Of a stretch of 24,000 bases of DNA, positions 1-22,634 are shown piece by piece. A program made the position numbers and the translations under genes. Location: NCBI GenBank assembly GCA_964547865.1, contig CAZJPO010000001.1:14749-38748 (forward strand), read 5' to 3'. Within the stretch, counting starts at the first letter, position 1, and each line of letters opens with the position of its first letter. Under the pieces are notes generated by a model that did not search any database, was not told the DNA's origin, and was given only the letters and a program-made list of their open reading frames with translations. The stretch comes from an uncultured Thiosulfatimonas sp. GTDB taxonomy: Bacteria; Pseudomonadota; Gammaproteobacteria; Thiomicrospirales; Thiomicrospiraceae.

Positions 1-1
1 G

Positions 2-1180
2 CGTTTTATCAACGTCGTCGCCCGTGCATTGGTGGCAATCGGTGAAAAACCAAACTACACCAACATCCTCCAATACGTCACGGATATTGAACCTCTGTTT
101 AGACGCTTTGCTGAACACTGGCTACCTCTCAATGCAAATACAGACTGGCAATCAGACGTTCAAGTGTATGAGGAGGAAGCAACGGCTCAGTACAAGAAAA
201 ACCCTCGGTTTGCCAAACATCAATCACCACGGACTGAAGCTTTACGCAATTACATTGAAAAGCTTGAAACCAATGATCCCGTGCTGCTTGGTTTGCTTGG
301 TGCATTGCGCTACGACCAAGAATTCTATTCCAAGCTGGTTGCCAGCCTTATCCCATTACTTGAAAAAGTTACTACTGGGAAAATCGGAAAACTTCTTGCA
401 CCTGAATACGATGATTTAAGTGATGAACGCCCGATATTCGACTGGACACAAATCATTCGTTCCAAAGCGGTTATTTATATCGGCTTAGATGCGCTTCAGG
501 ATTTGGAGATTGCCTCAGTTGTGGGTAATTCCATGTTCTCTGATCTGGTTAGCACCAGTGGGATGATTTACAAGCATGGCTATGAAGCCGGCATGATTGA
601 AGGCCGTGAAGGTTTACTACCTAAAATTTACCTCCACGCAGACGAACTCAACGAACTCATTGGTGAAGAGTTTTTACCAATGGTCAACAAGGCGGCTGGA
701 TCAGGTGTCATCTTGACCGGCTACACCCAATCTCGTTCTGACCTTGAAGCAGCTTATGGCGATAAAGCTAAAGCTCAAGTCATTGAAGATAACTTCAACA
801 ACCTCATCATGATGCGCGTCAGAAACAAGCACACTGCTGAACTACTGACCGATCAACTTCCTGAAGTTGAAACCACCACAGTCATGCAGGTATCGGGGGC
901 GACAGATTCCTCAAATCTCGATTCCGAACAGGATTTTACCTCCAACACCCAAGACCGTATCTCGGTCAATCAGTCCGTCATGCTGGAGCCTAGTGCTCTG
1001 ATGTCATTACCCAAAGGGCAAGCCTTCATGCTGGTCAACGGCGGACACCTTTACAAAGTGCGAATTCCATTACCAGAAGACGACAACATTCCAATTCCCG
1101 AAACCCTAAGAGAGATGACTGAAGAAATGGATCGAACCTACAGTACCGGCGAAAAATGGTGGTCAGGAGCAGGGTTATGA
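2..1180 (+). CDS. traD: Type IV coupling protein TraD, C-terminal part (5' end lies upstream of the window)
   Basis: The frame is open from nt 2 with no stop, so the ORF continues off the left edge. It contains a hydrophobic-DE Walker-B-like stretch (IYLHADELNE). Its TGA stop overlaps the next gene's start (ATGA at 1177-1180). It sits immediately upstream of the PFL_4697-type membrane gene, as in MPF_G ICEs. Confidence 0.75.
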   Translation, partial: RFINVVARALVAIGEKPNYTNILQYVTDIEPLFRRFAEHWLPLNANTDWQSDVQVYEEEATAQYKKNPRFAKHQSPRTEALRNYIEKLETNDPVLLGLLGALRYDQEFYSKLVASLIPLLEKVTTGKIGKLLAPEYDDLSDERPIFDWTQIIRSKAVIYIGLDALQDLEIASVVGNSMFSDLVSTSGMIYKHGYEAGMIEGREGLLPKIYLHADELNELIGEEFLPMVNKAAGSGVILTGYTQSRSDLEAAYGDKAKAQVIEDNFNNLIMMRVRNKHTAELLTDQLPEVETTTVMQVSGATDSSNLDSEQDFTSNTQDRISVNQSVMLEPSALMSLPKGQAFMLVNGGHLYKVRIPLPEDDNIPIPETLREMTEEMDRTYSTGEKWWSGAGL

Positions 1181-1923
1181 GTGAAACAAAAACAAACTCC
1201 CAATCAAATGCACATCCAGCTGAAAAGAGAGGAGTTATCTCCCACACATTCGGATTTATTTTCAGGATATTTGGCGTTCTGATCTTTGCGGCATTTATTT
1301 CCGTATTGGTTGAGTGGGTTGGTATGGCCACATGGTTTTCTGATGACTATCAGGGATATGAACACGCTCAGGAGATGTTCCAAACCGAACTGGGATACCT
1401 CAATGTCTCGGTAAAAGAAGGGGGCATGGATACGATCGCAGCGGCCAATGCCAATCATTATATTAACAATGCCATTCAATACGTTTTCTTTGACTCAGGA
1501 CTTGTTCAATGGCTTCACAACTCCAGAACACCCATGCCAACGGATAATGATGTTGTAGCGACCTTAAAACAATTTCAAGGTGCTATTCATGATTACATCA
1601 TGGCCATGATCTACACCCTTATGACATTCACTGTCCGGGTAACGATCCTCACGCTCTCTATACCTATTTTCTTTATTTTCGCGCTAGTGGCTTTTGTAGA
1701 TGGCTTGGTGCAAAGGGATATTCGCCGATTCACTGGTGGCCACGAATCGAGTTTTGTGTACCACATTGCCAAAGGATTTGCGGTGCCACTGGTTGTTATG
1801 GCTTGGATTTTTTACCTCGCAATGCCGGTCAGTATCAATCCGAATTGGGTTATCACACCGTTTGCAGCGATGTTCGCTTTCGCCATATTCATTGCCACAA
1901 GCAAGTTTAAGAAATACCTGTAA
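1177..1923 (+). CDS. ICE inner-membrane protein, PFL_4697 (TIGR03747)-like
   Basis: I prefer the ATG at 1177 over 1156 because AGGAG at 1165-1169 lies 7 nt upstream and there is an ATGA overlap with the traD stop. It has several hydrophobic helices. Size and position after traD match the recalled MPF_G order. Confidence 0.75.
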   Translation: MSETKTNSQSNAHPAEKRGVISHTFGFIFRIFGVLIFAAFISVLVEWVGMATWFSDDYQGYEHAQEMFQTELGYLNVSVKEGGMDTIAAANANHYINNAIQYVFFDSGLVQWLHNSRTPMPTDNDVVATLKQFQGAIHDYIMAMIYTLMTFTVRVTILTLSIPIFFIFALVAFVDGLVQRDIRRFTGGHESSFVYHIAKGFAVPLVVMAWIFYLAMPVSINPNWVITPFAAMFAFAIFIATSKFKKYL

Positions 1924-2027
1924 AGAGATAAGTCTTTTATACCTTTTTTAGGTCAATCATTTGTGACCCATTAAGAAACTAATTTCACAGACAAATAAAT
2001 TACAGTCTGAATCGACAAGGAGATTTT

Positions 2028-2342
2028 ATGAAACACATTGCGACTACATTTTTGCTGACACTGGGAATAGGATTTTCTTCAGTTGCATCTGCGGATGTCT
2101 GGGCTGAAAGAGAGGCTTTATCCAAAGTGGAATCAGAAATAAAAGCAATCGAGTCTCTGGTGAATGATGCTTCCAAAATTGCGGTTGAGGATACTCGAAT
2201 TCAATTTGAATACGATGCCTTAATCCGTGATTTAAGAATGATTCGCCAAGGTATTAAAGACCATCTGGCTCAACCTATTAATCCTGTCATACCATCCAGA
2301 ATTGAGCCGGTTCGCGCTGATTACACTGGAGTGAATAAGTAA
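2028..2342 (+). CDS. Small secreted ICE protein, probably RAQPRD family (TIGR01690-like)
   Basis: AAGGAG at 2017-2022 precedes the start. N-terminal signal peptide (…SSVASA/DV). C-terminal EPVRADYTG resembles the RAQPRD motif. It is the first gene of the pilus/core block. Confidence 0.6.
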   Translation: MKHIATTFLLTLGIGFSSVASADVWAEREALSKVESEIKAIESLVNDASKIAVEDTRIQFEYDALIRDLRMIRQGIKDHLAQPINPVIPSRIEPVRADYTGVNK

Positions 2343-2575
2343 TGGCTTGGGAAGATGATTTTAACACCGGTGCCGGTGGCTTTATCACTGCTGACCAAGC
2401 TTTATTTGCATTTCAGGCAATAGGCGCAACCCTTATTCTTTTGTGGGCAGCATGGATTTTTGTTAGTTCCTATTACAGCTGGGGAGACGGTTCTATCAGT
2501 GGATCCAAAATGCTGTTTCTATGGGCTAGGACGGTTTTCCTCATGATGGTTTTGCTATGGCTATTTACAAACTAA
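2342..2575 (+). CDS. Small ICE membrane protein, PFL_4701 (TIGR03758)-like
   Basis: TAATG stop/start overlap with the upstream gene. 77 aa with two hydrophobic helices. Syntenic position. Confidence 0.65.
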   Translation: MAWEDDFNTGAGGFITADQALFAFQAIGATLILLWAAWIFVSSYYSWGDGSISGSKMLFLWARTVFLMMVLLWLFTN

Positions 2576-2598
2576 CTCATAACTAAGGAGATTATTTA

Positions 2599-2946
2599 AT
2601 GAGTTTAATTAAGAAAGTAAGCGGTGCCGCTTTAACCCTTTCAGCACTTTTCGCTTCAAGTGTTCAAGCAGCCCTTCCAACAACTGCGGATCCAACAAAC
2701 GCGGCCGCTGATGGCAATTACATTGACCTGTTAAAAGGCTATGCGTTCGACATCGGTATTGTCGTTGGTTTAGTCATTGGTACGATCGCTTTCATCGTTG
2801 TTGCCAACAACATGATCGGTACTTACAAAGAAATCGGGGATGGCAAAAAGACATGGGGAGACATGGGGATGCACGGTGCAATGGGTGTTCTATTGCTAGT
2901 GTTTGTTGTCTATTTATTAACCGAAGCCGCAGCGGTAATTTTCTAA
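2599..2946 (+). CDS. ICE membrane protein, PFL_4702 (TIGR03745)-like; candidate pilin-like subunit
   Basis: AAGGAG lies upstream. Signal peptide (…SSVQA/AL) followed by two C-terminal TM helices. 115 aa. Syntenic position. Confidence 0.7.
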   Translation: MSLIKKVSGAALTLSALFASSVQAALPTTADPTNAAADGNYIDLLKGYAFDIGIVVGLVIGTIAFIVVANNMIGTYKEIGDGKKTWGDMGMHGAMGVLLLVFVVYLLTEAAAVIF

Positions 2947-2952
2947 AAAATT

Positions 2953-3369
2953 ATGCCTGATATTGAAGGAATGAAAGGTCGGGAGATTAATTACATTCCC
3001 GACCGTTTAATTGCTGATCCGGTTGTATTTCGCGGAATGACCGATACCGAAGTGGTAACGATAGTTGTCATTGGAATCATTTTCTGGGTTCCAGTTTCAA
3101 TCATCCTGTTATTGCCATTTGGGTACGGTTTATTCGGCGTTGGAGTAGGTGTCGGTATGGCAATACTGACCCTGCTTTTTGCTGGTAAGCGACTTACTAA
3201 CCTAAAGCGCAAGCAACCTGACGGGCTTCATGTTGTCTTTTTCAAAAGATGGTTGCAGAAAAAGGGCTTTGGCTCTTACGGATTTATTGACCAATCTCAA
3301 AAATGGGATGTCAGACGTTCAAAGCCGGTTTCAGTAGTAAAAATAGTCCAAGAAGATGAAGACAGCTAG
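2953..3369 (+). CDS. Conjugative transfer region membrane protein (TIGR03750-like)
   Basis: 138 aa with two adjacent TM helices and a basic tail. Syntenic position. The start is uncertain (alternative ATG at 2971). Confidence 0.65.
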   Translation: MPDIEGMKGREINYIPDRLIADPVVFRGMTDTEVVTIVVIGIIFWVPVSIILLLPFGYGLFGVGVGVGMAILTLLFAGKRLTNLKRKQPDGLHVVFFKRWLQKKGFGSYGFIDQSQKWDVRRSKPVSVVKIVQEDEDS

Positions 3370-3382
3370 AGGTTGATAACCA

Positions 3383-4039
3383 ATGTCAAAAGTAAAACGT
3401 GCCCTTGATAGCAAAGATTCGCACATCAAAACACTCAGAATAGTGATCGCTATTCTTACCCTAATTATTGCTTATTCGCAGTGGGGGTGGTCTCAAGCTC
3501 CCAAAAATATCACTGTGGATATTCCGCCAGACTTACGTTCTGGCTCTTCTCGTTTGATCGGGGAAAAGCATCCATACAACGTGTATAGCTATGGGCTTTA
3601 CATCTGGCAACAAATTAACAGCTGGCCGGTATCTGGTGAAGAAGATTACAAAAAAAATATTGAACGCCTGTCCTGCTACATCACACCTAAATTCAAAGCA
3701 GAGCTTTTGCAAGACTACGATGACAAAGGCCGACGTGCAGAGCTGAAAAGAACACGATACATCCAAGAAATGCACGGTCGAGGCTACCAGCCAGAGAGAG
3801 TTTTCATTGAATCTAAGGATTCATGGGTCGCTTACTACGACATTGGTATTAAAGAGTCTTACCGTGGACAAAAGATTAAAGACATCTACGCTCGTTATCC
3901 ATTACGGATTGTAAGAATGGATGCAAATCCAGAGTGTAACCCTTGGGCATTGGCCATTGATGGTATTTATGAAAAACCAAAACGTATCGAAGTGCGTGAG
4001 ACAGAAATGGAAGCTACGACAGGAGAAGTGCAACAATGA
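3383..4039 (+). CDS. ICE protein, PFL_4703 (TIGR03746)-like, N-terminal membrane anchor
   Basis: GAGG lies 8 nt upstream. Single N-terminal TM helix. ATGA overlap with the next gene at 4036-4039. Confidence 0.7.
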   Translation: MSKVKRALDSKDSHIKTLRIVIAILTLIIAYSQWGWSQAPKNITVDIPPDLRSGSSRLIGEKHPYNVYSYGLYIWQQINSWPVSGEEDYKKNIERLSCYITPKFKAELLQDYDDKGRRAELKRTRYIQEMHGRGYQPERVFIESKDSWVAYYDIGIKESYRGQKIKDIYARYPLRIVRMDANPECNPWALAIDGIYEKPKRIEVRETEMEATTGEVQQ

Positions 4040-4962
4040 TGAAATTTAAACTATCTGCCCTAATTGGGGCATTGCTTCTGTCTTCTGCTGTTCAAGCGAC
4101 TGAGTACATCGAATACAGCAACAAACCAGTCACCATTCAACTGCATGAAGGCGAAGAACGCACGATTCAGTTTGGAGACCATGTTGCCGTTGGTGTTACC
4201 CCTAAACAAGAAGCACAGGGGCTATTCAGAGTCCAAAGTGCTCAAGGCGCACTGCATATCCTTCCTCGTAAAACATTCGAGCGTGAACGTATTCAAGTGA
4301 AACGCTTGGGTGATGGAAAAATCGTTCTTATTGATTTGGTATCTATTGAAGCCAATAAAAAAGATGAAACACCACTAGAAGACATCAGAATCTATGTTGG
4401 AAATGAAGCCAAAGAGCTTCCAAAAGACATAGAAGCTGCCAATGAAGAAGCATCGGGGGAAACCAATGCTACCCAGAAGGAAGTCGAGCCGATCACACCA
4501 ATCACCTTGACTCGCCACCTCGCTCAAAAACTTTATGCTCCCGAAAGACTGCACAAGGTAATGCCGGGGATTAGTGAAGTTTCGCTAAACGAAGTGCTTC
4601 ATAAAGATGTTCGTGCCTTTAAAGGTATTAATCGAGCCAAGACCACTGTAAAACCAATATTGGCCTACCGCTCTGGAAATCTTTATGCAACCGCTCTTCT
4701 GGTAAGCAATACAGGCAACACAACCGTTCAGCTTAATTACTTGGACATCAACCTTCCTTTTACCCATGCAACCTATCAGCACCACAAGTTGACTCCAAAG
4801 GGGCAGGCAGGAGATAGAACGGTTCTTTACGTTATCAATGAGCGCCCTTTAAGTGAAACACTTGTACCTTGGACGTACTACTCTGAACTGGAAGTGCAAA
4901 AGGCTAAGGAAGCTCAACAATCGAAAAAGAAAGCCAGTCATGACGCTTCAGGGGAGTTTTAA
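4036..4962 (+). CDS. Secreted ICE protein, PFL_4704 (TIGR03749)-like
   Basis: Signal peptide (…SSAVQA/TE). 308 aa. Translationally coupled on both sides. Syntenic position. Confidence 0.7.
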   Translation: MMKFKLSALIGALLLSSAVQATEYIEYSNKPVTIQLHEGEERTIQFGDHVAVGVTPKQEAQGLFRVQSAQGALHILPRKTFERERIQVKRLGDGKIVLIDLVSIEANKKDETPLEDIRIYVGNEAKELPKDIEAANEEASGETNATQKEVEPITPITLTRHLAQKLYAPERLHKVMPGISEVSLNEVLHKDVRAFKGINRAKTTVKPILAYRSGNLYATALLVSNTGNTTVQLNYLDINLPFTHATYQHHKLTPKGQAGDRTVLYVINERPLSETLVPWTYYSELEVQKAKEAQQSKKKASHDASGEF

Positions 4963-6453
4963 ATGAAGGGCAATAAACTTATCAAAATCCTAGCGATTGT
5001 CTTTGTGGCCATTGTCTTGATTGCTCTGATGATTAATGGAAAGAGTAAGAATAAGGAACTGGTGCAAGCGCAAAATGCACCTGCCTTAGATGATAACGGT
5101 TTGGCATTAGCCCCTGTCTCCGACGATGAACTTGCCAAAGAGTTTGGGGTCGATGTGGATTCTCCAGAAGAAACCATGAGAACGCTAACAACTGAACTGC
5201 AAGCTGTTAAGCGTGAGAACGACCTGATTCAGCAAGAAAACGAGCGTCTGCGTCAAGAAGCTGAAAAGCTTCTCAACATGGAAAAAAACATCACTTCACG
5301 AGTCGATAGCAAAGTGCGTAATGCGGAAACCGTGGTGGAAAATCAAGCAAAACGCTTAGAGCGTCAATCGCAAGAATCCGATACCCTGCTGCGAAGACTA
5401 GAGCAACGCCTCAAAGATTTAGAGCTTAGTCGAAACGAACCAGCAACGACTGCCCAAACAACACCTGAAGGCTATGACATTGGTATGGCAGGCATTCCCG
5501 ATGGATTGGGTTATACCGATGGGGGAATGAGTGGTACAGGCGTAATCTGGAAGCAACCACTTGATGCAGTTAAAGATGAAAAGTCTGGAGAACTTTCCTT
5601 GCCAGATTTTTCCTTGCCGGATTTAGGCGTACAAGCTCCCGGTATTCCTGAAGGTGAAGAGTTGCGTCGTGGTAAAAAGAAAGACGAACCTACCAAGATT
5701 AAAGCTTACACCATTCCTGAAAACGCAACACTGTTTGGTTCTACCAGTATGACCGCTCTTTTGGGTCGCATTCCTGTGGACGGTCAAATATCGGATCCAT
5801 ACCCATTTAAGATTATTGTCGGCCCTGAAAACCTTTCATCAAACGGCATCAACATTCCCAACGTGGAAGGCATCACTATGTCGGGTGTTGCGAAAGGTGA
5901 CTGGACGCTATCTTGTGTTTCTGGAGAAATTCACAGTATGACCTTTACCTTCTCTGACGGCTCAATTTCAACTTATCCTGAGCCAAAAGAGGGCGGTACA
6001 GCAAGAAGAGAAACAATTGCATGGTTCTCTGACGAATACGGTGTGCCTTGTGTGACTGGTAAGCGAATTACCAACGCTCCATCCTACCTTGCAACTCGAA
6101 TTGGATTGGGCGCGTTGTCCGCCTATGCCAATGTTCAAGCACAGCAAGAATATACCAACACCACGACTTCAGGGCCATACGGTACGAGCACATCTAGCAC
6201 ACTTACAGGTGACGCGGGCAATGCAGCCAAGAACCAAGCAATTGTTGGGGGCACAGAAGAGGTGATGGATTGGGTAGAAAAACGTCAGCAGCAGAGCTTT
6301 GATGCGATTTACGTTGAACCCGGCACTAAGTTGCATCTACACATGATTCAACAGGTAGCGATTGATTACCCGATTAATGGATCTGGTCGCAAGGTACAAC
6401 ACAGCGAATTCACTAACTTCCAAAGCAACAATATGCACCGTGGATTGGACTAA
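4963..6453 (+). CDS. ICE protein, PFL_4705 (TIGR03752)-like (TM anchor, coiled coil, C-terminal beta-rich domain)
   Basis: The start directly abuts the upstream TAA. N-terminal TM helix, a heptad-like E/Q/R/L-rich segment, and a G/T/S-rich C-terminus. Syntenic position. Confidence 0.7.
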   Translation: MKGNKLIKILAIVFVAIVLIALMINGKSKNKELVQAQNAPALDDNGLALAPVSDDELAKEFGVDVDSPEETMRTLTTELQAVKRENDLIQQENERLRQEAEKLLNMEKNITSRVDSKVRNAETVVENQAKRLERQSQESDTLLRRLEQRLKDLELSRNEPATTAQTTPEGYDIGMAGIPDGLGYTDGGMSGTGVIWKQPLDAVKDEKSGELSLPDFSLPDLGVQAPGIPEGEELRRGKKKDEPTKIKAYTIPENATLFGSTSMTALLGRIPVDGQISDPYPFKIIVGPENLSSNGINIPNVEGITMSGVAKGDWTLSCVSGEIHSMTFTFSDGSISTYPEPKEGGTARRETIAWFSDEYGVPCVTGKRITNAPSYLATRIGLGALSAYANVQAQQEYTNTTTSGPYGTSTSSTLTGDAGNAAKNQAIVGGTEEVMDWVEKRQQQSFDAIYVEPGTKLHLHMIQQVAIDYPINGSGRKVQHSEFTNFQSNNMHRGLD

Positions 6454-6459
6454 GGAAAC

Positions 6460-6735
6460 TGAAGTCAACAACCCACCCCTAAAGGGGCAGGCTTGAAAAA
6501 GCCTAGTTGACCAGAGGGCGACTTCGGTCGCAGCAGAGTGTAATAGGTCGTTAAGACTTACCTTGAGGTGCTTCCTTAGCCTCAAGCTCTAAAAGGCGTT
6601 GAGAATGCTGGCATAGGGTAAGTGCCGAATCTTGATGTCGCACCCTTGGGTGGAGCCGGTTACATTCAATCTCGAAGGGAGATGGCTTTTAAAGCCACGT
6701 TACAAGACCCGTAAGGGTGTTTATTTGGAGTAACA
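6460..6735 (+). ncRNA. Candidate omega RNA (guide plus scaffold) of IscB; ends not determined
   Basis: 282 nt with no credible ORF lie directly 5' of iscB on the same strand. Stem-loops: 6476-6487 (C4/G4), 6489-6504 (6 bp, GAAA loop), 6518-6531 (5 bp, UUCG loop), 6562-6586 (7 bp), 6641-6652, 6683-6697, 6707-6718 (GUAA loop). Confidence 0.6.
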
Positions 6736-8106
6736 ATGTCTGTATTAGTGCTGGATAAAAACAAGAAACCGTTGATGCCTTGTTCTGAGAAAAGAGCACG
6801 ATTGCTGTTATCTCGTGGACGAGCAGTGGTTCATCTCCTTTATCCATTCACCATCCGGATTAAAGATTTGAAGCAATCAGACTGTTTGTTGCAATCGGTG
6901 CATTTAAAGCTAGATCCAGGTTCTAAAACCACGGGATTAGCTTTAGTTCTAAGTTCTGATATTGAATTAAAAACTTTATTTTTAGCCAATATCGAACACA
7001 AAGGTTTTGCAATCTCTGAGAGTTTAACTCAACGCAGAGCATTTAGACGACGCAGAAGAAACAAGCTTTGGCATCGTAAAGCACGATTTGATAATCGGGT
7101 TAAGCCTAAAGGTTGGCTACCGCCCTCTTTAAGACACAGAGTGGATACGACATTGGCGTGGGTTAAAAAGCTATCTCGACTTGTACCTGTTACTGATATT
7201 GGGTTTGAGCGAGTTAAGTTTGATATGCAGAAGATGGCTAACGGTGATATTAGTGGTGTTGAGTATCAGCAAGGCACTTTATTTGGGTATGAGGTTAAAG
7301 AGTACCTTTTGGAAAAACATCGCCACACCTGTGCTTATTGCAGTGGGTTGAGCGGTGATAACCGCTTAGAGGTAGAACATACTCACCCCAAGTCGAAAGG
7401 TGGAGGCAATAGCGTTAAGAACTTGGTACTCGCTTGCAGAAGTTGCAATGAGTCAAAAGACAATCTGTTATTGGTGGATTGGAAAAATAGGTTGGGTAAC
7501 AGCAAGTTAGATACCGCCCGTAAATCAGGCGTTGAGAAAGTCCTTAAAGGCAAATGGTCTGGTTTAAAAGATGCCGCATCGGTTAACGCCACTCGTAATG
7601 AGTTGCTAAAACAACTGTTAATGTTTGCAGGTGAGCACTTATCCGTTTACACAGGTACAGGTGCTATGACTAAGTTTAACCGCAAACAGCAAGGGATTCC
7701 TAAAGACCACTGCTTAGATGCGTTATGTGTGGGTGAAGTATCAAAACCAATCACTCAATGGCAACAGCCTGTATTGCGCATTAAATGCACGGGCAGAGGT
7801 ATTTATAAAAGAACTCGCTTGGACAAGTACGGTTTTCCAAGAGGTTACTTGATGCGTCAAAAAGCAGTTTATGGGTTTCAAACGGGTGACATGGTTAAAG
7901 CGAATGTCACTAACGGAAAGAAAGCTGGATTGCATGTTGGGCGTGTAGCGATTAGAGCTACTGGCAGTTTTAACATTCAAACCACAACAGGTTTGGTACA
8001 AGGGATTAGTCATAATTATTGCACATTAATTCAGCGTGGCAGTGGTTATGGCTTTGGTTTTACAAAGATAGCAACCAACTATGGAGAAGAGAGAAAGGCC
8101 GCTTAA
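6736..8106 (+). CDS. iscB: IscB, OMEGA-class RNA-guided DNA endonuclease (split RuvC with inserted HNH)
   Basis: GGAG lies 5 nt upstream. PLMP motif at aa 12-15 (nt 6769-6780). RuvC-I LDPGSKTTG (D60, nt 6913-6915). Arg-rich bridge helix RRAFRRRRRNKLWHRKARF. RuvC-II GFERV (E158). HNH CAYC...EVEHTHPKSKGG...NLVLACRSCNESK (nt about 7330-7455). RuvC-III KDHCLDALC (H325, D328). All catalytic positions appear intact. Confidence 0.88.
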   Translation: MSVLVLDKNKKPLMPCSEKRARLLLSRGRAVVHLLYPFTIRIKDLKQSDCLLQSVHLKLDPGSKTTGLALVLSSDIELKTLFLANIEHKGFAISESLTQRRAFRRRRRNKLWHRKARFDNRVKPKGWLPPSLRHRVDTTLAWVKKLSRLVPVTDIGFERVKFDMQKMANGDISGVEYQQGTLFGYEVKEYLLEKHRHTCAYCSGLSGDNRLEVEHTHPKSKGGGNSVKNLVLACRSCNESKDNLLLVDWKNRLGNSKLDTARKSGVEKVLKGKWSGLKDAASVNATRNELLKQLLMFAGEHLSVYTGTGAMTKFNRKQQGIPKDHCLDALCVGEVSKPITQWQQPVLRIKCTGRGIYKRTRLDKYGFPRGYLMRQKAVYGFQTGDMVKANVTNGKKAGLHVGRVAIRATGSFNIQTTTGLVQGISHNYCTLIQRGSGYGFGFTKIATNYGEERKAA

Positions 8107-8156
8107 AAGCAGGTGCTATCCCTCCCCAATCTAAAGGATGGGGGCTCTCGCACGAA

Positions 8157-8570
8157 ATGATGAAAAAGACTTTATTTACAGGGTTACTGGCCATCAGCAT
8201 GGTCAGCGTATTAGGGGGATGCTCTTCAAAAGGCGACGTAATCCCACAGCCAGAACAAACAATGAATGATGTGTACTACAAGGCAATGGGAGGTTTTGGT
8301 GAAGCCAAGCTCATGGATCAGCGAAGTGTACTTCGTCGCTCAATGGTTGAATCCGATACGGATTACAGCAATTACGTGAGAACGGAATCTTCTCAACTGC
8401 AATCAAAGTTCTCTTTGCTGCCTAACCCAACAATGTTTATGTTTGTTGCACCACACTTGAGCACGGCTGATGGTGTACCAGTACCGGGCTATTTAACAGA
8501 ATTTAAGCTCTACACAAAAGACCACTATGCCCTACCGGGTGAAGTCAACCTTGATGTTGTAGGAGAATAG
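8157..8570 (+). CDS. Conjugative transfer region lipoprotein (TIGR03751-like)
   Basis: Starting at MMKKTLF gives a classic lipoprotein signal with lipobox LGGC (Cys22). The longer track ORF from 8019 would overlap the iscB 3' end. Syntenic position just before traC. Confidence 0.75.
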   Translation: MMKKTLFTGLLAISMVSVLGGCSSKGDVIPQPEQTMNDVYYKAMGGFGEAKLMDQRSVLRRSMVESDTDYSNYVRTESSQLQSKFSLLPNPTMFMFVAPHLSTADGVPVPGYLTEFKLYTKDHYALPGEVNLDVVGE

Positions 8571-8573
8571 CAA

Positions 8574-11513
8574 ATGGGTTTCCTTGACTTATTTGGCGGC
8601 AAAAAAATCGAAGCTGAAGAATCCAAAACGGAAGAAAAAAAACCTTCAGCACCTGAAGAGAAAAAACCTCTAAAGGATATTGAAGTAAAACGGATGTACG
8701 GCCAACCTAGCTCGTTCATTGACAAGCTTCCTTGGTATGAATACTTGCCTGAAGAGCAAACCATTCTTTTAGATGATGGTTTGTCGGTTGGTGCTGTATT
8801 TGAAGTGCTTCCTTTGCCAACCGAAGGACGATCAGAAGATTGGCTTGCGGATCAGCGCGACCAGATTGAAATGGCAATTAGCGATGCCTTTGATGAAGAG
8901 CCCAATTCACCTTGGATTATTCAGCAGTACACCTTTGATGATAACCAGCTGAAGAAGTTCATTGATAACTTACGCGCCTACCCTGACGATCACTGCCGCG
9001 ATAGCCAATACACTCAACAATGGCTTAATACGATGGAAAAGCACCTATACGGCATTTCAAAAGAAGGTGGTTTATTCATTGATGAAGAGGTGCTTGGAGG
9101 TATCCCTTGGGGCGGCAAGATGATTCGCACGATTGTCGTCGTCTATCGTCGGCTGCCAAAGGGTTGGAAACACCCTCAAGATTTAACGCCGTCAGAAGAT
9201 TTGAATGATGTGTGCGATAAATTCAAGAACGGTTTGCGTGAATGCAATATCAAATTAACTCGCTTGGGTGGTAAAGATTTCTACGAGTGGATGTTGATGT
9301 GGTTTAACCCAAACCCAGAAATGACACAAGGAAACAAAAAAGAGTTTCTAGAGTTAGCCTCCTATCCGGGTGATGAAGACCTGCCCTATGGAGATGATTT
9401 TTCTGAATCTCTATTCTTTTCCCTACCTGAATCCGATTCTGAGAAACAGGCTTGGATTTTTGATGATGTCTATCACCAGTGCATTCGCGTGAATAAACTG
9501 CGCCGTTCGCCAAAAATTGGCGCAATCACGGGTGAATCAAGCACCGGGGAAAAGGTTTCATCCTTAATGGATAAGATGCCTCCGGGAACTGTGTTTGTCT
9601 CGACTCTAATTGTCACACCTCAATCCGACGTGGAAATGCAGATTGACCGCATTGCACAAAAGTCTCGTGGTGAATCGACAGAGGCCACTTATGCTCGAAG
9701 AGACTGTGAAACAGCCAAAGAGATCATGTCATACCGCAAGAAGCTGTATCGCTCAACAATGGCGGTCTATATTCGCGCCAAGAGCGTAAAAGAACTCAAG
9801 CAGATGAACAACCAAGTTTGTGCGCTACTGACCTCTATTCAGCTACAACCTTACAAGACTGAAGATGATCCAGTCGGATTAAACTCTTACATTCTAAACC
9901 TGCCAATGGTTTATGAACCCAAAATGGATTTGAGTTTCAAAACATCCAGACCTATCTGGCTACAACACATGGCCAATATTTCGCCAATGTTCGGGCGCAA
10001 TCGCGGTACCGGTAATCCCGGCATGATTATGTTTAATCGTGGGGGAGAACCAATTACCGTTGACCCATTCTGCAAGGCTGACCGTCAAAAAAACGCACAC
10101 GGTGTTCTGCTTGGCCCTACAGGTGCAGGTAAATCTGCAACCTTGAACTACTGGTCGGCTCAAATTATGGCTATTCACCGCCCCCGCATGATTATTGTTG
10201 AAGCAGGTAACTCGTTTGGCTTGCTGGCAGAGCACTTTAGAGCCAACGGCTTAACCGTGAAAAGCGTTCAAATTAAACCCGGTGCAGGTGTTTCTTTAGC
10301 CCCGTTTCAGGATGTGCATCAACTGGTCGATTCTCAGGATGGACACAGAATTTCCGAAACAGATTTAATGCACTCCATTATTCATGTTATGAAAAAAGAG
10401 GGGATCTCAGAACACTTCGATACTTTAAGCGAAGAAGAGCAAACCCGTCTGCGCGAAAAGGCTACTATCACTTACTTATCAAAGCACAACCTCGATGCAG
10501 ACGAAGAAGAGGATGAAAACGACGATCTGGAAGACGATCAACGTGACATTCTTGGTGAAGCTGAAATTATCGCAACCCTAATGATTACTGGGGGTGAAAA
10601 GGAAGAGGTTAAACGACTGCTACGCTCAGACCGTCGAATGATTCGAGATGCAATTCTTATTGGAGCCAAGAAAGCTGTCAAAGAAGGCCGCACCACGCTG
10701 ACTGAAGACGTTGCATTTGGATTTAGTCAGATTTCGCACGATGAATCATATCCTGAGAAGAGTCGGGAAAGAGCCTTTGAAATGGGTGAATCCATCCGAA
10801 TGTACACAGACGGATTTGAAGGTGAACTGTTTAACAATGCTGCTGACGCATGGCCAGACGTTGACGTTACCATTGTGGACTTAGCAACGCTTGCAAAAGA
10901 GGGTTATCAAGCACAGCTTGCACTGGCTTACACCTCAATCATGCAGAACACCAATGCCTTGGCTGAAAAATACCAAAACTCAGGTCGTCAAATCGTCATG
11001 CTGACAGATGAGGCTCACTTGATTACGGTCAACCCTTTGCTATCCGCTTTCTCGGTCAAAATCGTCAAGATGTGGCGTAAATTGAACGCTTGGTACTGGT
11101 TGGCCACACAGAACTTGGAGGATTTCCCGAACGAATCCAAGAAAATCCTCAATATGTGTGAATGGCTCATAGCCTTGGTTGCACCTACTGAAGAAGTCGA
11201 GCAGCTAGCCAACTTCCGAAATGTATCTGAAGAACAGAAACGCTTAATGGTTTCAGCCAAAAAAGAGCAGCACAAGTATGTCGAAGGCACCATTCTGGCA
11301 GACAAAATCGAAACACTGTTCAGAAACGTACCACCATCACTCTACCTCTCTCTGGCCGGTACTGAAGGTTACGAAAAAGCCCAACGTGCAGAGTTGATGA
11401 AAAAGTACGGCATTACCAATTTGGAAGCTGCTGAATATGTGGCTGCACAGATTGACCATGCACGTGGCATTTCACCTAAGCCACCAGAACCTACAACGAG
11501 AAAAAGCGCATGA
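8574..11513 (+). CDS. traC: Conjugative transfer ATPase TraC (VirB4-like; PFL_4706 / TIGR03744-like)
   Basis: 979 aa. Walker A GPTGAGKS at nt 10113-10136. Walker-B-like IVMLTDEAH. ATGA overlap with the next gene. Confidence 0.88.
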   Translation: MGFLDLFGGKKIEAEESKTEEKKPSAPEEKKPLKDIEVKRMYGQPSSFIDKLPWYEYLPEEQTILLDDGLSVGAVFEVLPLPTEGRSEDWLADQRDQIEMAISDAFDEEPNSPWIIQQYTFDDNQLKKFIDNLRAYPDDHCRDSQYTQQWLNTMEKHLYGISKEGGLFIDEEVLGGIPWGGKMIRTIVVVYRRLPKGWKHPQDLTPSEDLNDVCDKFKNGLRECNIKLTRLGGKDFYEWMLMWFNPNPEMTQGNKKEFLELASYPGDEDLPYGDDFSESLFFSLPESDSEKQAWIFDDVYHQCIRVNKLRRSPKIGAITGESSTGEKVSSLMDKMPPGTVFVSTLIVTPQSDVEMQIDRIAQKSRGESTEATYARRDCETAKEIMSYRKKLYRSTMAVYIRAKSVKELKQMNNQVCALLTSIQLQPYKTEDDPVGLNSYILNLPMVYEPKMDLSFKTSRPIWLQHMANISPMFGRNRGTGNPGMIMFNRGGEPITVDPFCKADRQKNAHGVLLGPTGAGKSATLNYWSAQIMAIHRPRMIIVEAGNSFGLLAEHFRANGLTVKSVQIKPGAGVSLAPFQDVHQLVDSQDGHRISETDLMHSIIHVMKKEGISEHFDTLSEEEQTRLREKATITYLSKHNLDADEEEDENDDLEDDQRDILGEAEIIATLMITGGEKEEVKRLLRSDRRMIRDAILIGAKKAVKEGRTTLTEDVAFGFSQISHDESYPEKSRERAFEMGESIRMYTDGFEGELFNNAADAWPDVDVTIVDLATLAKEGYQAQLALAYTSIMQNTNALAEKYQNSGRQIVMLTDEAHLITVNPLLSAFSVKIVKMWRKLNAWYWLATQNLEDFPNESKKILNMCEWLIALVAPTEEVEQLANFRNVSEEQKRLMVSAKKEQHKYVEGTILADKIETLFRNVPPSLYLSLAGTEGYEKAQRAELMKKYGITNLEAAEYVAAQIDHARGISPKPPEPTTRKSA

Positions 11514-11965
11514 GAAAGTTAATGTTAGCGACCGCACTTCTTTCTCTGGCAAGCCCTGTCATGGCTGAAGAGAAGATCACCGATTTAAAGGTGTGGTTTG
11601 ACTCACAAAAAGCCCCTGTAAGCATTGATTATCAATTTTCGGATCAAACGACAATCAATCTGTATGACTATGCGGAGCACAAAGCCGCTGACAAGGCTTT
11701 AAACGACAACCTAAACATTGCCTACGGAAAAGATTTAAAAACCAATGAAGCAATGGCTAAAGAAGCCTTTCAGAGTTTTATCAACTCATCAGGCTATGAG
11801 GCTGTCCAGAAGAAGTATCAGGCTTTTGCTCATACCATTGAAACCTCTGAGAAATACCAGATTACCAAGGCTCCAACGGTTGTTATCAATGACAAATACA
11901 AAGTTGTCGGGGTGAATTCCATTTCGGAAGCCGTGAGAATCTTCAATTTGAAGGTGAACCCATGA
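11510..11965 (+). CDS. Periplasmic ICE protein, PFL_4709 (TIGR03757)-like
   Basis: Signal peptide (…SPVMA/EE). 151 aa. Coupled by ATGA overlaps on both sides. Syntenic position. Confidence 0.65.
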   Translation: MRKLMLATALLSLASPVMAEEKITDLKVWFDSQKAPVSIDYQFSDQTTINLYDYAEHKAADKALNDNLNIAYGKDLKTNEAMAKEAFQSFINSSGYEAVQKKYQAFAHTIETSEKYQITKAPTVVINDKYKVVGVNSISEAVRIFNLKVNP

Positions 11966-12951
11966 AAAAGGTACTACTCTCTCTATCAATATTGGCCGCC
12001 TGCACGAATGCTCAGGCAGAAGAAATTAATACCGTCGATGTTGTCAATAGAACGGTATCTGCAATGCTCAGTTGTGCCGATTATAAAGTTGTTGGACTTT
12101 GTTTTTGGTTGAAGTGTGGATGGACAGGGTGTTCAATCAGAACTTCACCAAAGATCAGTCATTACCTTCCTGACATTACTGTTCAAACCTATCGTGATGC
12201 TGAAGAACCACCTTGGAAGGAAACAGGAATCATGATGCAAGTTGCACAGTCGGATCATGATGGCTCTTTGATCTCTGCGATTCTTTCCACTATGGGTTCA
12301 GGTCTTGACGAGCTTGGGGGCGGGGGTGGCTCAGAAAATAAAGCTGCATCGCATTCCAATATGACTTTCACACTAACTGATTCTTATGGAAATCCAGCAA
12401 TTGCCGCTTATTCTGCACTGTCTGGCACAGGGTTTACGTGTAAGAGCAAGCTAACACCAATGTACCCATATTACATTTCCAATTTGGATACGGTTGCATG
12501 GCGTTTTGGCATTCCTGAAATGGTCTATCCACAGTCACTAAATCCATTTGGTTATTTACTTGGATCCAATAGTTATAACTGGGGTGGCTACTACCCTCGT
12601 ATTGGCCATGTCACAAATCACGATCTATTCAAGGAATCAGGATTGATTGCCTTTAGAAGTGCCCATTTCGTTTCCCGTACAGGGCAACCTCACGTTTACA
12701 AAACAATCAATCAAAGTAGATCGACGGGGTTTTGGCCACCGGGTCCAGTGACCACCACATCAGGTAAATGGCAAATGATTTCCCCTAAAAGAGAGGGAAG
12801 TTGTAGCACGTTACCAAGAAATATGTCCATTAGTGCGAGCGACGGCAAAAGTTCATACCGCAGCAATGATGGGAATCACGTCTGGAATCTATGGCGGAAA
12901 TATACTTGCTGCCAAAAAAAAGGTTCATGGATTGGCGACGTGAACTTCTAA
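11962..12951 (+). CDS. Periplasmic TraU-like ICE protein, PFL_4710 (TIGR03756)-like
   Basis: Signal peptide (…TNAQA/EE). Cys-rich N-terminal segment (CADYKVVGLCFWLKCGWTGC), typical of TraU-like proteins. 329 aa. Confidence 0.7.
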   Translation: MKKVLLSLSILAACTNAQAEEINTVDVVNRTVSAMLSCADYKVVGLCFWLKCGWTGCSIRTSPKISHYLPDITVQTYRDAEEPPWKETGIMMQVAQSDHDGSLISAILSTMGSGLDELGGGGGSENKAASHSNMTFTLTDSYGNPAIAAYSALSGTGFTCKSKLTPMYPYYISNLDTVAWRFGIPEMVYPQSLNPFGYLLGSNSYNWGGYYPRIGHVTNHDLFKESGLIAFRSAHFVSRTGQPHVYKTINQSRSTGFWPPGPVTTTSGKWQMISPKREGSCSTLPRNMSISASDGKSSYRSNDGNHVWNLWRKYTCCQKKGSWIGDVNF

Positions 12952-12969
12952 ATCGAATTGGAGAAATAA

Positions 12970-14310
12970 ATGAAGAAAAAATATTTAGCACTGGCCATTT
13001 CTATTCTGGTTAGCACCCAAGCTCAGGCAGAAGTTGAATCTCCACGCATGGCTACAGTTTACGGCTATGAAATAGGTGGAAGCACACTTCCATCTCAATT
13101 CACTCGTTATAACAATGCCGGAGCACTTGGACTAGGGGTTTCGTGGGATATGAATATTGGCTGCGGTACCTTTGATCCAAAAATCTCTGTATCCAATCAG
13201 CTAAACGGAATCACTGACGGCTTTAAATCTATGATGGGTAATATCGTCAATAGTGCAACCAGCGCAGTTGCATCATTGCCTGCACTGATTATCCAACGTG
13301 CTAATCCCGGTCTTTACGATCTGCTTCAGCAAGGTGTATTGCAAGGAAAACTCGATACCGATTTTGCTGAAACAAGCTGTGAAGATATGCAAAAAATCAT
13401 GATGGGAGAAACTGGGCTTCCTTGGGAACAAGCGAAAGCAGGTACCAAACAACAAGTTTGGGCACAATCTCAAAGCAGTTCTGGTGGCGATGCGGTCAAA
13501 GCGAAACAAGCCGTGGATAGCGCGAATGTCGGTAACGATGGTCGAGACTGGGTTTGTGGCCAAAAACGTGGTGGCACCGGTCAACAGAAGGTCAACACGA
13601 TTTATGATGTCGTGGTTGCTGGCTACAACATCTATCATCAACGAACAGATATTTGTGACAACGGCTCACCTACAGCGACTCAAAGACAAGATTCGGATCT
13701 TTACAAATACTGGACAACTGCGGATGCCGCAGGTGACTGGGTGACAGAAGTTGTGGGTGAAGTTAAGCTTCAAACCTGTGAAGGCTGCACCAAAATCGAA
13801 ACAGTACCCGGCCTATCACTCGAAGTTAAACACGAGAAAATTGCTAATGACATCCAAACTGAATTGGAATCAATTGTAAACGGTGCAACTCAAATGACTT
13901 GGCAGAACCTCAATAGAGTTTCTGCACCGCCTACGGTAGTGGTAACACCGGCACTCATCAATAGTATTCGTAAACGCACTCCGGGCGGACAAACGCGCCT
14001 GATTGAGGATATTTCTCGTGAAATTGCCTACGCAAGACTTGCTGAACAATCAAGATTAGCAATCCGTATGTTGCGTACCGGCCAAAAAGAACCAAACGTC
14101 GAGACTTTCCCTAATGCTTCAGAGCAAGTGGATAAGGTTGTCAACGTATTGCGTGAGAACATGGTTCTCATCAAAGAAGCGGCCTCTGATGTTAAGCCTA
14201 TTTCATCGAACACGATTAACAAAGTTCTGATTGATGAAGAGGACAATATGCAGAACGCTCGCCCAGTATTTAAGCCTGTTACAAAAACCAAAGATTTGGA
14301 GATCAAATAA
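12970..14310 (+). CDS. Periplasmic ICE protein, PFL_4711 (TIGR03755)-like
   Basis: GGAGA lies upstream. Signal peptide (…STQAQA/EV). 446 aa. Syntenic position. Confidence 0.7.
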   Translation: MKKKYLALAISILVSTQAQAEVESPRMATVYGYEIGGSTLPSQFTRYNNAGALGLGVSWDMNIGCGTFDPKISVSNQLNGITDGFKSMMGNIVNSATSAVASLPALIIQRANPGLYDLLQQGVLQGKLDTDFAETSCEDMQKIMMGETGLPWEQAKAGTKQQVWAQSQSSSGGDAVKAKQAVDSANVGNDGRDWVCGQKRGGTGQQKVNTIYDVVVAGYNIYHQRTDICDNGSPTATQRQDSDLYKYWTTADAAGDWVTEVVGEVKLQTCEGCTKIETVPGLSLEVKHEKIANDIQTELESIVNGATQMTWQNLNRVSAPPTVVVTPALINSIRKRTPGGQTRLIEDISREIAYARLAEQSRLAIRMLRTGQKEPNVETFPNASEQVDKVVNVLRENMVLIKEAASDVKPISSNTINKVLIDEEDNMQNARPVFKPVTKTKDLEIK

Positions 14311-14672
14311 TGTTCTCCCGAAAGATTCTTACTTACCTAGTTTTATCTTTGATTTTTGTGTTTATGGTTTCAACACTAATTACGGTGCTGGGAACCAAAG
14401 ACCTGAGTAATGTTTCTAAAATTGGCGAAACCGATTTTAGAACGACATTCTTGCCATATCGACTGGCCTTTTATGCAATTGTTTTGGCTGCTTGGAAGCC
14501 GATTGCACGTTTGCTCGCTAGACCAAGAATGCCTCGTGAAGACAGAACACCTGAAATAAACCAAAAGTGGGATGAATTAACACAGCTTCTGGTGAAGGGT
14601 TGGTGGAAAGTGGCATTATTCTTTGCTGTTTTTGAATTGCTTGCCATTCAGCAATTGGAGTTCTTGTCGTGA
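14310..14672 (+). CDS. Small ICE membrane protein (three predicted TM helices)
   Basis: TAATG overlap upstream and GTGA overlap downstream. Hydrophobic helices. No family recognised. Confidence 0.6.
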   Translation: MFSRKILTYLVLSLIFVFMVSTLITVLGTKDLSNVSKIGETDFRTTFLPYRLAFYAIVLAAWKPIARLLARPRMPREDRTPEINQKWDELTQLLVKGWWKVALFFAVFELLAIQQLEFLS

Positions 14673-16252
14673 TTGCCAATACGTTTCTTGATATTTACAC
14701 AATCATATTCTCTTGGCAGGTTTACGGGGCAATCTGGGATACCCTAAACGGTACGGGCTTGGCCTATATTCCTTTTATCGTTGCGATTATCAGCTCACTA
14801 CAACAGTCTTATGACCAATCGCCTAGTCGAATTGTTTCCACATTGGAATTCAATTTACTTGGGATGATTCTTGTTCTTATGTTGGTCGTCATTCCCTATG
14901 ACAATAACAATATCAGCCTGTCAGAAGTGAAATATTCCATTGCTTCTACATCCTGCCAAAACCCTGAGCAACTTGGCGACGGCGATAACACTGGAGAAAC
15001 CGCTGACGATGTTTTTGCTGATATGGCTGGGGGCGCACCAGTAAAAATTCCAATTGCATGGGCTTTAGTGGATTACTTCTCCAGTGCCATTACCTTCTCT
15101 GCAATTAAAGCAATGGGGTGCTCAAACGACTACAACGACGTTCTGGTTAAAGTCGGTAATGTTTCTATCGACGACCCAGCCATGCTTGGCCGTTTAAATG
15201 AGTTTAACAAGCGTTGTTATCGTCCCGCTCTTAAAGATTTAGAAGAGAATGGTATGCCAGCAGGTGCTGATAGAGACACTTTAAAACCTTGGGATGATCC
15301 AAGCTTTATTGGCTCAAACGTATTCTTGAACACCCCTGGTAGATTCTTTAATTCTGAAACCGCATACGTCCATCAAGCTCAAAGGTATGGTTTCACCTAT
15401 GACCCAACTCCGGGTTCTCTCGATGAAAAACATGACGAAGATACCTTTGGGGCGACAGTATCCTGTGCTGATCTCTGGAATGATCCAAATCACGGTTTAC
15501 GAAAAGACTTATTGGAATCCATCCAAGACACCAGTGAGGGCGATGACGCTTGGGATGACTGGGATGACTATGGAAGTGATCTTTATGGATCTAACATTGC
15601 CACCAATGCTGACAAAGAAGATTCGTTTATAAAAACTATTTTGGATGCAAATGCTGGTGGCTACAACGCTGTTGATGACATCGACATTACCAGTAGTAAC
15701 GGATCAGTGGATAAAAACATCGGACAAAAAATGCTAGATGGTGTTACTGATATTGTTGTTGGAGGAGCAGCAGCTATTTCAAATCTAGGTAATTTTTCAG
15801 AAATGTGGATGATGAAGAAAGCAATGAAGACTGCATTACCAATGCTCGTTTCTATGGCTCAGGCTTTGATTGTTATCCTTGCCCCTCTAGCAATGGTTTG
15901 GGGTATGTACAAGATGCAGAACTTTGTAATATTGGCTTTGGCGTACTTCGGTTTAGAATTTTTAAATGCTGTCTTAGGCATGGGGTTCTTCTTTGAAAAT
16001 AGAATTGTTGAGATGTCGAATGCAGCGATATTTGAAGGACCATTGGCTTCATTGGTGGTGTTTATAGTAAGTATTCTTCAAGTCATTGTATTGCCAATAA
16101 TTTGGTTATCGCTAATTGGAGCTACAGGAGCATCTGCCCTCCAGAGAATGGGAGGAAGTGTTACAGGTGGTCAAAAAGGTCAATTTGGAGGAAACCCTAA
16201 AGAAGCTTCCGATAATGTAAAAAGCGCAGGCCGCGAACCGGGTGGAAAATAG
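14669..16252 (+). CDS. traG: TraG-like polytopic membrane mating-pair protein (TraG N-terminal-domain type)
   Basis: GTG start overlaps the upstream stop. N-terminal TM helices, a large acidic periplasmic loop, C-terminal TM cluster and a Gly-rich tail. It is the last gene of the MPF_G block, as recalled for this family. Confidence 0.65.
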   Translation: MIANTFLDIYTIIFSWQVYGAIWDTLNGTGLAYIPFIVAIISSLQQSYDQSPSRIVSTLEFNLLGMILVLMLVVIPYDNNNISLSEVKYSIASTSCQNPEQLGDGDNTGETADDVFADMAGGAPVKIPIAWALVDYFSSAITFSAIKAMGCSNDYNDVLVKVGNVSIDDPAMLGRLNEFNKRCYRPALKDLEENGMPAGADRDTLKPWDDPSFIGSNVFLNTPGRFFNSETAYVHQAQRYGFTYDPTPGSLDEKHDEDTFGATVSCADLWNDPNHGLRKDLLESIQDTSEGDDAWDDWDDYGSDLYGSNIATNADKEDSFIKTILDANAGGYNAVDDIDITSSNGSVDKNIGQKMLDGVTDIVVGGAAAISNLGNFSEMWMMKKAMKTALPMLVSMAQALIVILAPLAMVWGMYKMQNFVILALAYFGLEFLNAVLGMGFFFENRIVEMSNAAIFEGPLASLVVFIVSILQVIVLPIIWLSLIGATGASALQRMGGSVTGGQKGQFGGNPKEASDNVKSAGREPGGK

Positions 16253-20150: not shown

Positions 20151-20530
20151 TAATTTCAGCCGTTGAAAAATTGAAGCAGATTGTATTCCTTTCTGGACTT
20201 ATTAATAACAAACAAAAGGTCGCAGACTTGTGACCTAATGAAATTCACTTGATTCTTGATTTGATTACGTTTTTGTAATAAATTAATGCTATTCCATTTA
20301 GTTTCTTGTCTGATGATTTTTTTCATCAGCTTGAATGACCAGCCCAGAGCCAATTCCTAGCTGGTCGCATCTGCGGATGTTTGGCTCATCAACTACCTCC
20401 GGGTTCAACGCCCAATCTCTTGGCTTCACGCCTTTTAAACTTCATAAACTTCACACACCACAACTTTTTCAAAGTTGCGTTTTGCTGTGCTCGTTTATTT
20501 ATTTACTACTCCAATTTAAAGGAAACTATC

Positions 20531-22538: not shown

Positions 22539-22634
22539 CTTATTTTTTTAAACACCACCCAGACGGGAAATACACACCCGTCGGGTCAGTGTATTTCCTT
22601 GATGGGTTCACTACTACATCTCTGGAGATACACA

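Follow-up and report, generated by a model that had tools for sequence, protein, structure and literature searches.

A predicted IscB omega RNA gene within an ISC2-type element inserted ahead of the start codon of a conjugation lipoprotein gene, downstream of its ribosome-binding site, in an uncultured Thiosulfatimonas sp.

Does the hairpin-dense gap preceding an iscB gene within a conjugative transfer operon encode the RNA partner of the IscB nuclease? This question was raised by a 24,000-nucleotide stretch of DNA from an uncultured Thiosulfatimonas sp. (contig CAZJPO010000001.1, positions 14,749 to 38,748 of the forward strand; termed the window in the following, position 1 being its first letter), in which 282 nt (6454 to 6735) separate the stop codon of an upstream gene (TAA, 6451-6453) from the ATG of iscB (6736). 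The original prediction regarded this leader as a candidate omega RNA, encoded on the same strand as iscB and placed at positions 6460-6735. Based on a full-length match to the HEARO family, the location 5' of an intact iscB gene, covariation among related loci and a sharp onset of conservation, positions 6464-6718 very likely represent the scaffold of an IscB omega RNA and, as such, part of an omega RNA gene within an ISC2-type element. The IscB omega RNA was formerly known as HEARO (Meers et al., bioRxiv 10.1101/2023.03.14.532601; PMC13565253). Expression of the RNA, its binding by IscB and guided cleavage are predicted for this locus. The features of the RNA and of iscB are listed below.

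6464..6718, plus strand: predicted omega RNA (HEARO) scaffold, based on the RF02033 match and the covarying fold in relatives; 3' edge approximate
6464-6470/6505-6511: P1 helix
6474-6479/6484-6489: helix
6489-6504: GAAA hairpin, AGGCTT-GAAA-AAGCCT
6514-6517/6670-6673: pseudoknot
6518-6531: UUCG hairpin, GCGAC-TTCG-GTCGC, a helix of the Rfam model
6536-6548/6655-6667: long-range helix
6562-6569/6579-6586: helix
6595-6604/6630-6639: helix
6610-6613/6623-6626: helix
6641-6644/6649-6652: helix
6683-6688/6692-6697: 3' hairpin
6707-6710/6715-6718: 3' hairpin with GUAA loop
6727..6730, plus strand: iscB ribosome-binding site GGAG, 5 nt before the ATG, read from the sequence
6736..8106, plus strand: iscB, encoding a 456-aa RNA-guided endonuclease, based on Pfam, solved-structure matches and homologue names

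The covariance-model search that had been suggested as a check, performed with Rfam RF02033 (HEARO) in E-value mode on a sub-region, returned a match at positions 6464-6686 on the plus strand with 80.9 bits (E=3.9e-16). The match covers the model end to end (positions 1-211 of 211), P1 helix and pseudoknot included. Its score lies 2.1 bits below the curated Rfam gathering cut-off of 83 bits, which represents an operational threshold and no biological feature. Of 14 related iscB loci searched at Rfam curated thresholds, 11 contain HEARO at the corresponding position (84.8-120.9 bits); the closest relatives of the window reached 84.8-90.1 bits and more distant ones up to 120.9 bits. The sub-threshold score of the window seems to reflect a divergent clade near the cut-off, with no parts of the RNA missing. 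Folded as a single RNA strand, the leader reached a minimum free energy of -97.8 kcal/mol vs. -83.4 +/- 5.1 kcal/mol in dinucleotide shuffles (z = -2.84), and none of 200 shuffles was equally stable. The unusual density of structure pointed out by the original prediction hence exceeds chance as judged from the fold, the HEARO match and the covarying helices. All hairpins listed there (6476-6487 CCCC-TAAA-GGGG, 6489-6504, 6518-6531, 6562-6586 CTTGAGG/CCTCAAG, 6641-6652, 6683-6697 and 6707-6718 ACCC-GTAA-GGGT) were recovered, as were the length of 282 nt and the GGAG motif at 6727-6730, which the structure reaches. Purine-rich sites occupy the position of this motif in the relatives.

Covariation was evaluated on 79 fetched loci (numbered with the prefix L), each encoding an IscB relative of 52-75% protein identity. 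In nearly all of them, the motif pair GTCAAC...TGACCAG is located approximately 270-310 nt before the start codon, and the 71 of 80 loci possessing this pair were retained. The resulting alignment comprises window positions 6464-6735 and the upstream regions of 70 related loci (MAFFT). RNAalifold predicted 63 pairs for these 71 sequences, 49 of which are compensatory. For pair counting, this structure was complemented by the HEARO pseudoknot and one small extra hairpin, giving 69 pairs; the UUCG hairpin at 6518-6531, being variable and poorly aligned by MAFFT, was left out. Paired cells amounted to 96.8% across the 71 sequences vs. 28-49% when partners were slid by 1-3 columns, and 55 of the 69 pairs change on both sides, values which none of 500 shuffles reached. 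The check by folding and covariation on homologous loci thus favoured the candidate as well, and six of the seven hairpins originally listed map onto covarying helices. Within the pseudoknot, 98.2% of cells are paired and three of four pairs are compensatory. Furthermore, the 3' hairpins at 6683-6697 and 6707-6718 covary too, the GUAA loop being near-invariant. RF02033 does not include downstream structural elements (Meers et al., bioRxiv 10.1101/2023.03.14.532601), and since both hairpins lie 3' of the Rfam model, the scaffold extends to approximately position 6718, directly 5' of the iscB ATG on the same strand.

The open reading frame (ORF) at 6736-8106 yielded Pfam matches to RRXRR (3.6e-67) and HNH (3e-10), and its product combines an N-terminal KPLMPC motif with an RRXRR region rich in arginine and a split RuvC domain that contains an HNH insert. 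Solved IscB structures matched the 456-aa protein at 1e-36 to 1e-26 (phmmer), the alignment covering residues 1-333 only and leaving the C-terminal part unmatched. Homologues number in the thousands, many of them named 'RNA-guided endonuclease IscB' (NCBI), the best being 76% identical. Residues D60, E158, H215, H325 and D328 are invariant in an alignment of 27 family members; in the alignment with a solved IscB chain, D60 is part of GIDPG, H215 of the HNH motif and H325/D328 of HxLDA. The gene is accordingly annotated as encoding an intact IscB with all catalytic residues.

Where the RNA gene begins was deduced from a naturally occurring insertion-free relative. For the 496-aa protein encoded upstream, one database protein with 98% identity was found, and the contig encoding it (L081; ENA ERZ21831251 ctg12442l, metagenome) features the same transfer operon without iscB and without a HEARO match. 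Alignment of L081 with the window (approximately 90% nucleotide identity; flanks 90.5% and 88.3%) delimited the following features.

6464..8159, plus strand: whole putative non-autonomous IscB element (ISC2-type, IS200/IS605 superfamily), 1,696 bp, based on the alignment with L081
6448..6463, plus strand: putative guide segment GACTAAGGAAACTGAA, flanking host sequence outside the mobile element
8107..8159, plus strand: iscB-distal transposon end (by TnpA convention the left end, as read from the opposite strand), conserved in relatives
8160..8163, plus strand: ATGA target site and transposon-adjacent motif (TAM), also the lipoprotein start codon, based on conserved adjacency and the empty site
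4963..6453, plus strand: upstream TIGR03752-family conjugative-element gene, based on homologue names and the transfer operon
8160-8570, plus strand: conjugation lipoprotein gene, starting at ATGA

The empty site of L081 reads ...GGACTAAGGAAACTGAA|ATGAGAAAGACTTTATTTACAGGG (junction around the ATGA target: ...GGAAACTGAA|ATGAGAAAG), while the window reads ...GGACTAAGGAAACTGAA(6463)|GTCAAC...CGCACGAAATG(8159)|ATGAAAAAGACTTTATTTACAGGG, with GAAATG as the last element bases. No shift of the boundaries is possible, because each junction has different bases to its left and right. Comparison of the window with L081 showed insertion at N|ATGA without a target-site duplication, the insertion point lying downstream of the ribosome-binding site of the conjugation lipoprotein gene and immediately before its ATG. 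Only one copy of the element was found in the window. Omega RNA, iscB and far end are together interpreted as a 1,696-bp non-autonomous ISC2-type transposon. As regards the original interval, its assignment to the leader holds, and its start has to be moved from 6460 to 6464, where the conserved RNA begins. The antisense 82-aa ORF (6337-6585, minus strand), correctly described there as the only ORF in the gap, was considered as a gene and rejected: since it spans the junction 6463/6464, it represents a chimera made by the insertion and is impossible at the empty site.

The distal end of 53 bp consists of a GCTATCCCT box, a hairpin (CCCCA 8124-8128/TGGGG 8139-8143) and a TCTCGC box. It is conserved 3' of the iscB stop codon in relatives, where the stem shows compensatory changes (CCCCG/CGGGG, CCCGG/CCGGG, CACCGGG/CCCGGTG, CCTCGG/CCGAGG), and its boundary 8159/8160 is fixed by the empty site. 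Subterminal hairpins are present at both ends of the element, i.e., 6474-6489 and 6489-6504 at the near end and 8124-8128/8139-8143 at the far end. The palindrome CCGCTTAAAAGCAG at 8099-8112 overlaps the iscB stop codon, and relatives possess different palindromes at this position, e.g., CTGCC-TAAC-GGCAG (L002) and CTGTGGC-ATAA-GCCACAG (L005), so that another conserved hairpin may be present at the far end of the transposon. The ATG at 8157-8159 constitutes a second in-frame start codon before the lipoprotein gene.

Hairpins of this kind could in principle act at the DNA level only, namely as subterminal single-stranded DNA hairpins for TnpA, with no functional RNA involved. Such TnpA-bound hairpins occur at IS200/IS605-type ends (PMC4810608), and the region starts exactly at the element end. 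One or two terminal hairpins suffice for TnpA, however, and not a region of approximately 255 nt; long-range helices 120 nt apart, the compensatory changes in the pseudoknot and the match to an RNA family experimentally shown to guide IscB also argue against this explanation and render it very improbable. The first hairpins probably serve both the RNA and TnpA recognition, these roles not being exclusive.

If the region encodes an omega RNA, its guide should be located in the adjoining flank. Across 69 loci, the information content does not exceed 0.35 bit at positions -24 to -1 and rises to approximately 2 bits from +1 onwards (the G of GTCAAC). Since the scaffold starts at the first base of the element, the guide corresponds to the left flank. 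IscB guides are 16 nt long (PMC12660989), and this literature value defines the putative guide GACTAAGGAAACTGAA at 6448-6463, which covers the TAA stop codon (6451-6453) of the TIGR03752 gene together with the ribosome-binding site native to the lipoprotein gene. The guide had been expected 5' of the scaffold, and this is where it is placed here, at approximately 6448-6463 and hence mostly outside the interval of the original prediction. The flank is identical to the L081 empty site in 24 of 24 bases. On the other side of the element, ATGA directly follows the far end in all 64 loci with a parsable distal end (ATGAA in 46 of them). The TAM of GstIscB, TTCAT, reads ATGAA on the opposite strand, and HEARO is bounded by the transposon end, with cleavage of the donor joint (Meers et al., bioRxiv 10.1101/2023.03.14.532601). 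Moreover, ATGAAA and ATGAGA fit NWRRNA, the TAM of OgeuIscB (PMC12660989). The empty site would present a guide match directly followed by the TAM, an arrangement published for IscB homing; within the window, no other guide matches with up to two mismatches were found.

In Thiomicrospira microaerophila (L003, NZ_JYNN01000002.1), the complete element is immediately preceded at its 5' end by a truncated second omega RNA (3550-3719, the first approximately 170 nt), so that the 'guide' of the complete copy consists of sequence from inside an omega RNA (...AAAAGGCGTTGAGA). A simple nested insertion was rejected as the origin of this locus, the right flank not being the remainder of the truncated RNA.

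How might such an RNA be transcribed? Plus-strand promoter-like or terminator-like sites were found neither at 5800-6464 nor within the RNA gene, and scan counts for promoters and terminators were not above those of shuffles, so that no dedicated promoter can be claimed. IscB omega RNAs require a transcription start external to the element (Meers et al., bioRxiv 10.1101/2023.03.14.532601). Given this statement, the shared strand and the lack of promoter- and terminator-like sites at 5800-6464, the omega RNA is likely transcribed by read-through from the transfer genes upstream of it. Co-transcription of the region with iscB, which may be presumed, and the extension of the structure to the ribosome-binding site would also suit a cis-acting 5' leader of the iscB mRNA affecting translation or stability, or a set of intrinsic terminators or repeats, in either case lacking a guide function. 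The stems are not followed by T-tracts, no plus-strand terminator-like site was called and no second copy exists in the window. Furthermore, such a leader would leave unexplained the homology to HEARO, the stop of conservation at the transposon end and the empty site composed of flank plus ATGA. It is therefore considered the least probable explanation and hardly credible.

Under the omega RNA interpretation, read-through from the transfer genes would generate an RNA in which the last approximately 16 nt of the flank (GACTAAGGAAACTGAA) are fused as guide to the scaffold, and IscB would bind this scaffold. The complex would recognise double-stranded DNA consisting of a guide match with ATGA(A) on its 3' side and cut it by means of the HNH and RuvC domains. 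The only such site would be the empty site, arising either once TnpA acting in trans has excised the element or in a copy of the conjugative element that lacks the insertion, and repair from an occupied copy would restore or spread the element. The occupied site would be immune, since there GTCAAC follows the guide match and ATGA is 1.7 kb away. This homing mechanism probably operates at the locus today.

Compatible with this explanation, and rather unlikely in comparison, the omega RNA/IscB pair may be genuine and the element stranded: without its cognate TnpA it would not be excised, a natural target would be encountered only if an insertion-free conjugative copy entered the cell, and the locus would represent a passenger of the conjugative element and not an active homing system. 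The window contains a single copy of the element, no Y1 transposase was found among the scanned ORFs of at least 110 aa within these 24 kb, and only approximately 1.5% of iscB genes are linked to tnpA (Meers et al., bioRxiv 10.1101/2023.03.14.532601). Against a stranded element, iscB is full length with all catalytic residues present and all RNA helices are intact, which speaks for recent or continuing selection; the view of the host is limited to 24 kb, and an allele that lacks the insertion and offers a perfect target occurs naturally (L081).

Several points weigh against the interpretation of the locus as a mobile omega RNA/IscB unit. An Rfam scan of the whole window at gathering thresholds gave no match, the RNA being missed on account of the shortfall of 2.1 bits. 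The near-invariance of P1 is partly circular, since the P1 motif pair served to choose the loci. Both ends of the omega RNA, its guide length and its expression are predicted, and the TAM preference of the window IscB is deduced from insertion sites. Furthermore, Y1 TnpA (Y1_Tnp, Pfam) is absent from the scanned window ORFs of at least 110 aa, and present mobility of the element therefore depends on an unseen transposase. The lack of TnpA beside iscB is typical, since iscB is found near tnpA in only approximately 1.5% of cases (Meers et al., bioRxiv 10.1101/2023.03.14.532601).

Comparison with known systems places the locus within a described kind of element. It resembles HEARO (RF02033) and OgeuIscB (PDB 7UTN, 7XHT) in the full-length model match, the location 5' of iscB on the same strand and the 5' guide; the protein matches solved chains at 1e-26 to 1e-36, and ATGAAA/ATGAGA are compatible with NWRRNA. 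It differs from the Rfam HEARO family by scoring 2.1 bits under the cut-off and by two extra covarying 3' hairpins (6683-6697, 6707-6718), and from solved IscB chains in being alignable over residues 1-333 only. An N|ATGA target, a 5' GT(CA) terminus and the lack of duplication characterise proteobacterial ISC2 elements of Halomonas and Marinobacter (PMC4810608). Like ISC2-1_MS and ISC2-2_MS (Marinobacter sp. ELB17) and ISC2-1_HM (Halomonas) described by Kapitonov et al. 2016, the window element is non-autonomous and encodes IscB only; it shares with them the 5' terminus GT(CA) and insertion at N|ATGA without duplication. Marinobacter ELB17 and Halomonas/Vreelandella copies are among the relatives used (L063, L074 and others). 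Unlike the ELB17 copies, to which protein identity is only 56-57%, the window copy resides inside the transfer operon of an integrative conjugative element (ICE).

Moreover, the locus is similar to the ISGst5 IscB element of Geobacillus stearothermophilus, in which the omega RNA is likewise located upstream of iscB, bounded by the transposon end and provided with a flank-derived guide. In both cases the TAM is located by the far end (TTCAT there, reverse complement ATGAA here), the donor joint equals the target and the element is oriented like the host gene upstream of it. ISGst5 was tested experimentally, whereas the present element is known from sequence, and the host phyla differ. The TnpB omega RNA (reRNA) and the Cas9 tracrRNA:crRNA follow the same principle of a RuvC-family nuclease on an RNA scaffold with a variable guide and a short DNA motif. 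In contrast to the window, the TnpB RNA occupies the 3' end of its gene, its guide being 3' and its TAM 5', and Cas9 obtains its guides from a CRISPR array, while the window features a single fixed guide set by the insertion site. The kind of system is thus already known; particular to this locus are the site within an ICE transfer operon, the placement between ribosome-binding site and ATG, and the natural empty site. Except for the Rfam score cut-off, all testable features that define IscB omega RNAs and ISC2-type elements are present at the locus.

Is the coincidence of target and start codon a property of the clade? In reconstructed empty sites of relatives, the ATG of the TAM opens an ORF of at least 80 codons in 40 of 55 cases; without reconstruction, the corresponding figure is 45 of 63 loci vs. 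31% for other ATGA motifs in the same flanks. A motif resembling a ribosome-binding site is located 5-16 nt upstream in 26 of the 55 reconstructed sites vs. 12% at control positions. The N-termini of ORFs started at the TAM appear genuine, exhibiting signal peptides or an AccA-like MNQNYLDFEQ (loci L002-L080). For the clade of ATGA-targeting IscB proteins, it may tentatively be proposed, with somewhat more doubt than confidence, that the target is usually a host start codon and that the elements reside between the ribosome-binding site and the ATG of same-strand genes. This link to start codons is mentioned neither in PMC4810608 nor in the preprint of Meers et al., the two sources compared, which do not include the original HEARO description (Weinberg et al. 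2009). In 11 relatives (L008, L009, L027, L033, L042, L060, L068, L071, L075, L076, L078), the iscB stop codon is the TGA of ATGA, so that the iscB frame runs through the transposon end into a classic ATGA stop/start overlap, which suggests translational coupling of iscB and the host gene in these cases. The iscB stop codon of the window is located 53 nt before ATGA.

If true, placement at a start codon would guarantee host-driven transcription of the omega RNA and provide a guide from the host 5' leader while leaving the host ORF intact; a family-wide preference of this type would explain both the transcription of a promoterless guide RNA and the tolerance of insertions. On a conjugative element, the IscB complex would then act as a gene drive, cutting insertion-free copies such as L081 in the same cell. 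The locus would represent an RNA-guided homing element carried in a conjugative transfer operon, between a ribosome-binding site and a start codon. It is also unusually clean, since a single comparison with an insertion-free relative gives base-exact boundaries, guide, TAM and natural target. Regarding annotation, a complete and apparently active IscB/omega RNA unit lies 2 bits under the Rfam cut-off, and no relative in the database exceeds 76% identity to the protein; an automated pipeline would name the gene yet overlook the RNA.

Further elements of this kind were noticed among the related loci. A single plasmid match obtained by megablast (query 6300-8300, partial) was rejected as a full relative, as it corresponds to an internally deleted copy of a similar element in L001 (4958-5523; Thiomicrorhabdus aquaedulcis plasmid pTmrp1, NZ_AP018723.1, about 70736-71301). 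This copy retains a complete omega RNA (74% identical to that of the window), the last 67 iscB codons, the far end and ATGA; it is unannotated and directly precedes a DUF4400 gene within the transfer region of this conjugative plasmid. Furthermore, the 1,761-bp contigs L041 and L044 (Halomonas casei, H. colorata) start with GTCAAT and end exactly with ...CTGATGA, and their names indicate high coverage (cov 515-639). Breaks of these assemblies at the element ends are expected for a multi-copy repeat.

With respect to the host operon, window positions 1-16252 represent the transfer region of TIGR0375x-type ICEs, encoding DUF2895, DUF3438, TIGR03752, the lipoprotein, TraC, TraU-like and TraG_N proteins; DUF2895, DUF3438 and TraC are the transfer-region neighbours of the TIGR03752 gene. 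Owing to the insertion, the lipoprotein gene is no longer adjacent to its native ribosome-binding site (AAGGAAAC). The conjugative element also encodes SSB (20381-21061), a RecT recombinase (21152-22114) and a YqaJ-type exonuclease (22599-23660), and it may be speculated that this recombination module aids copy-repair after an IscB cut.

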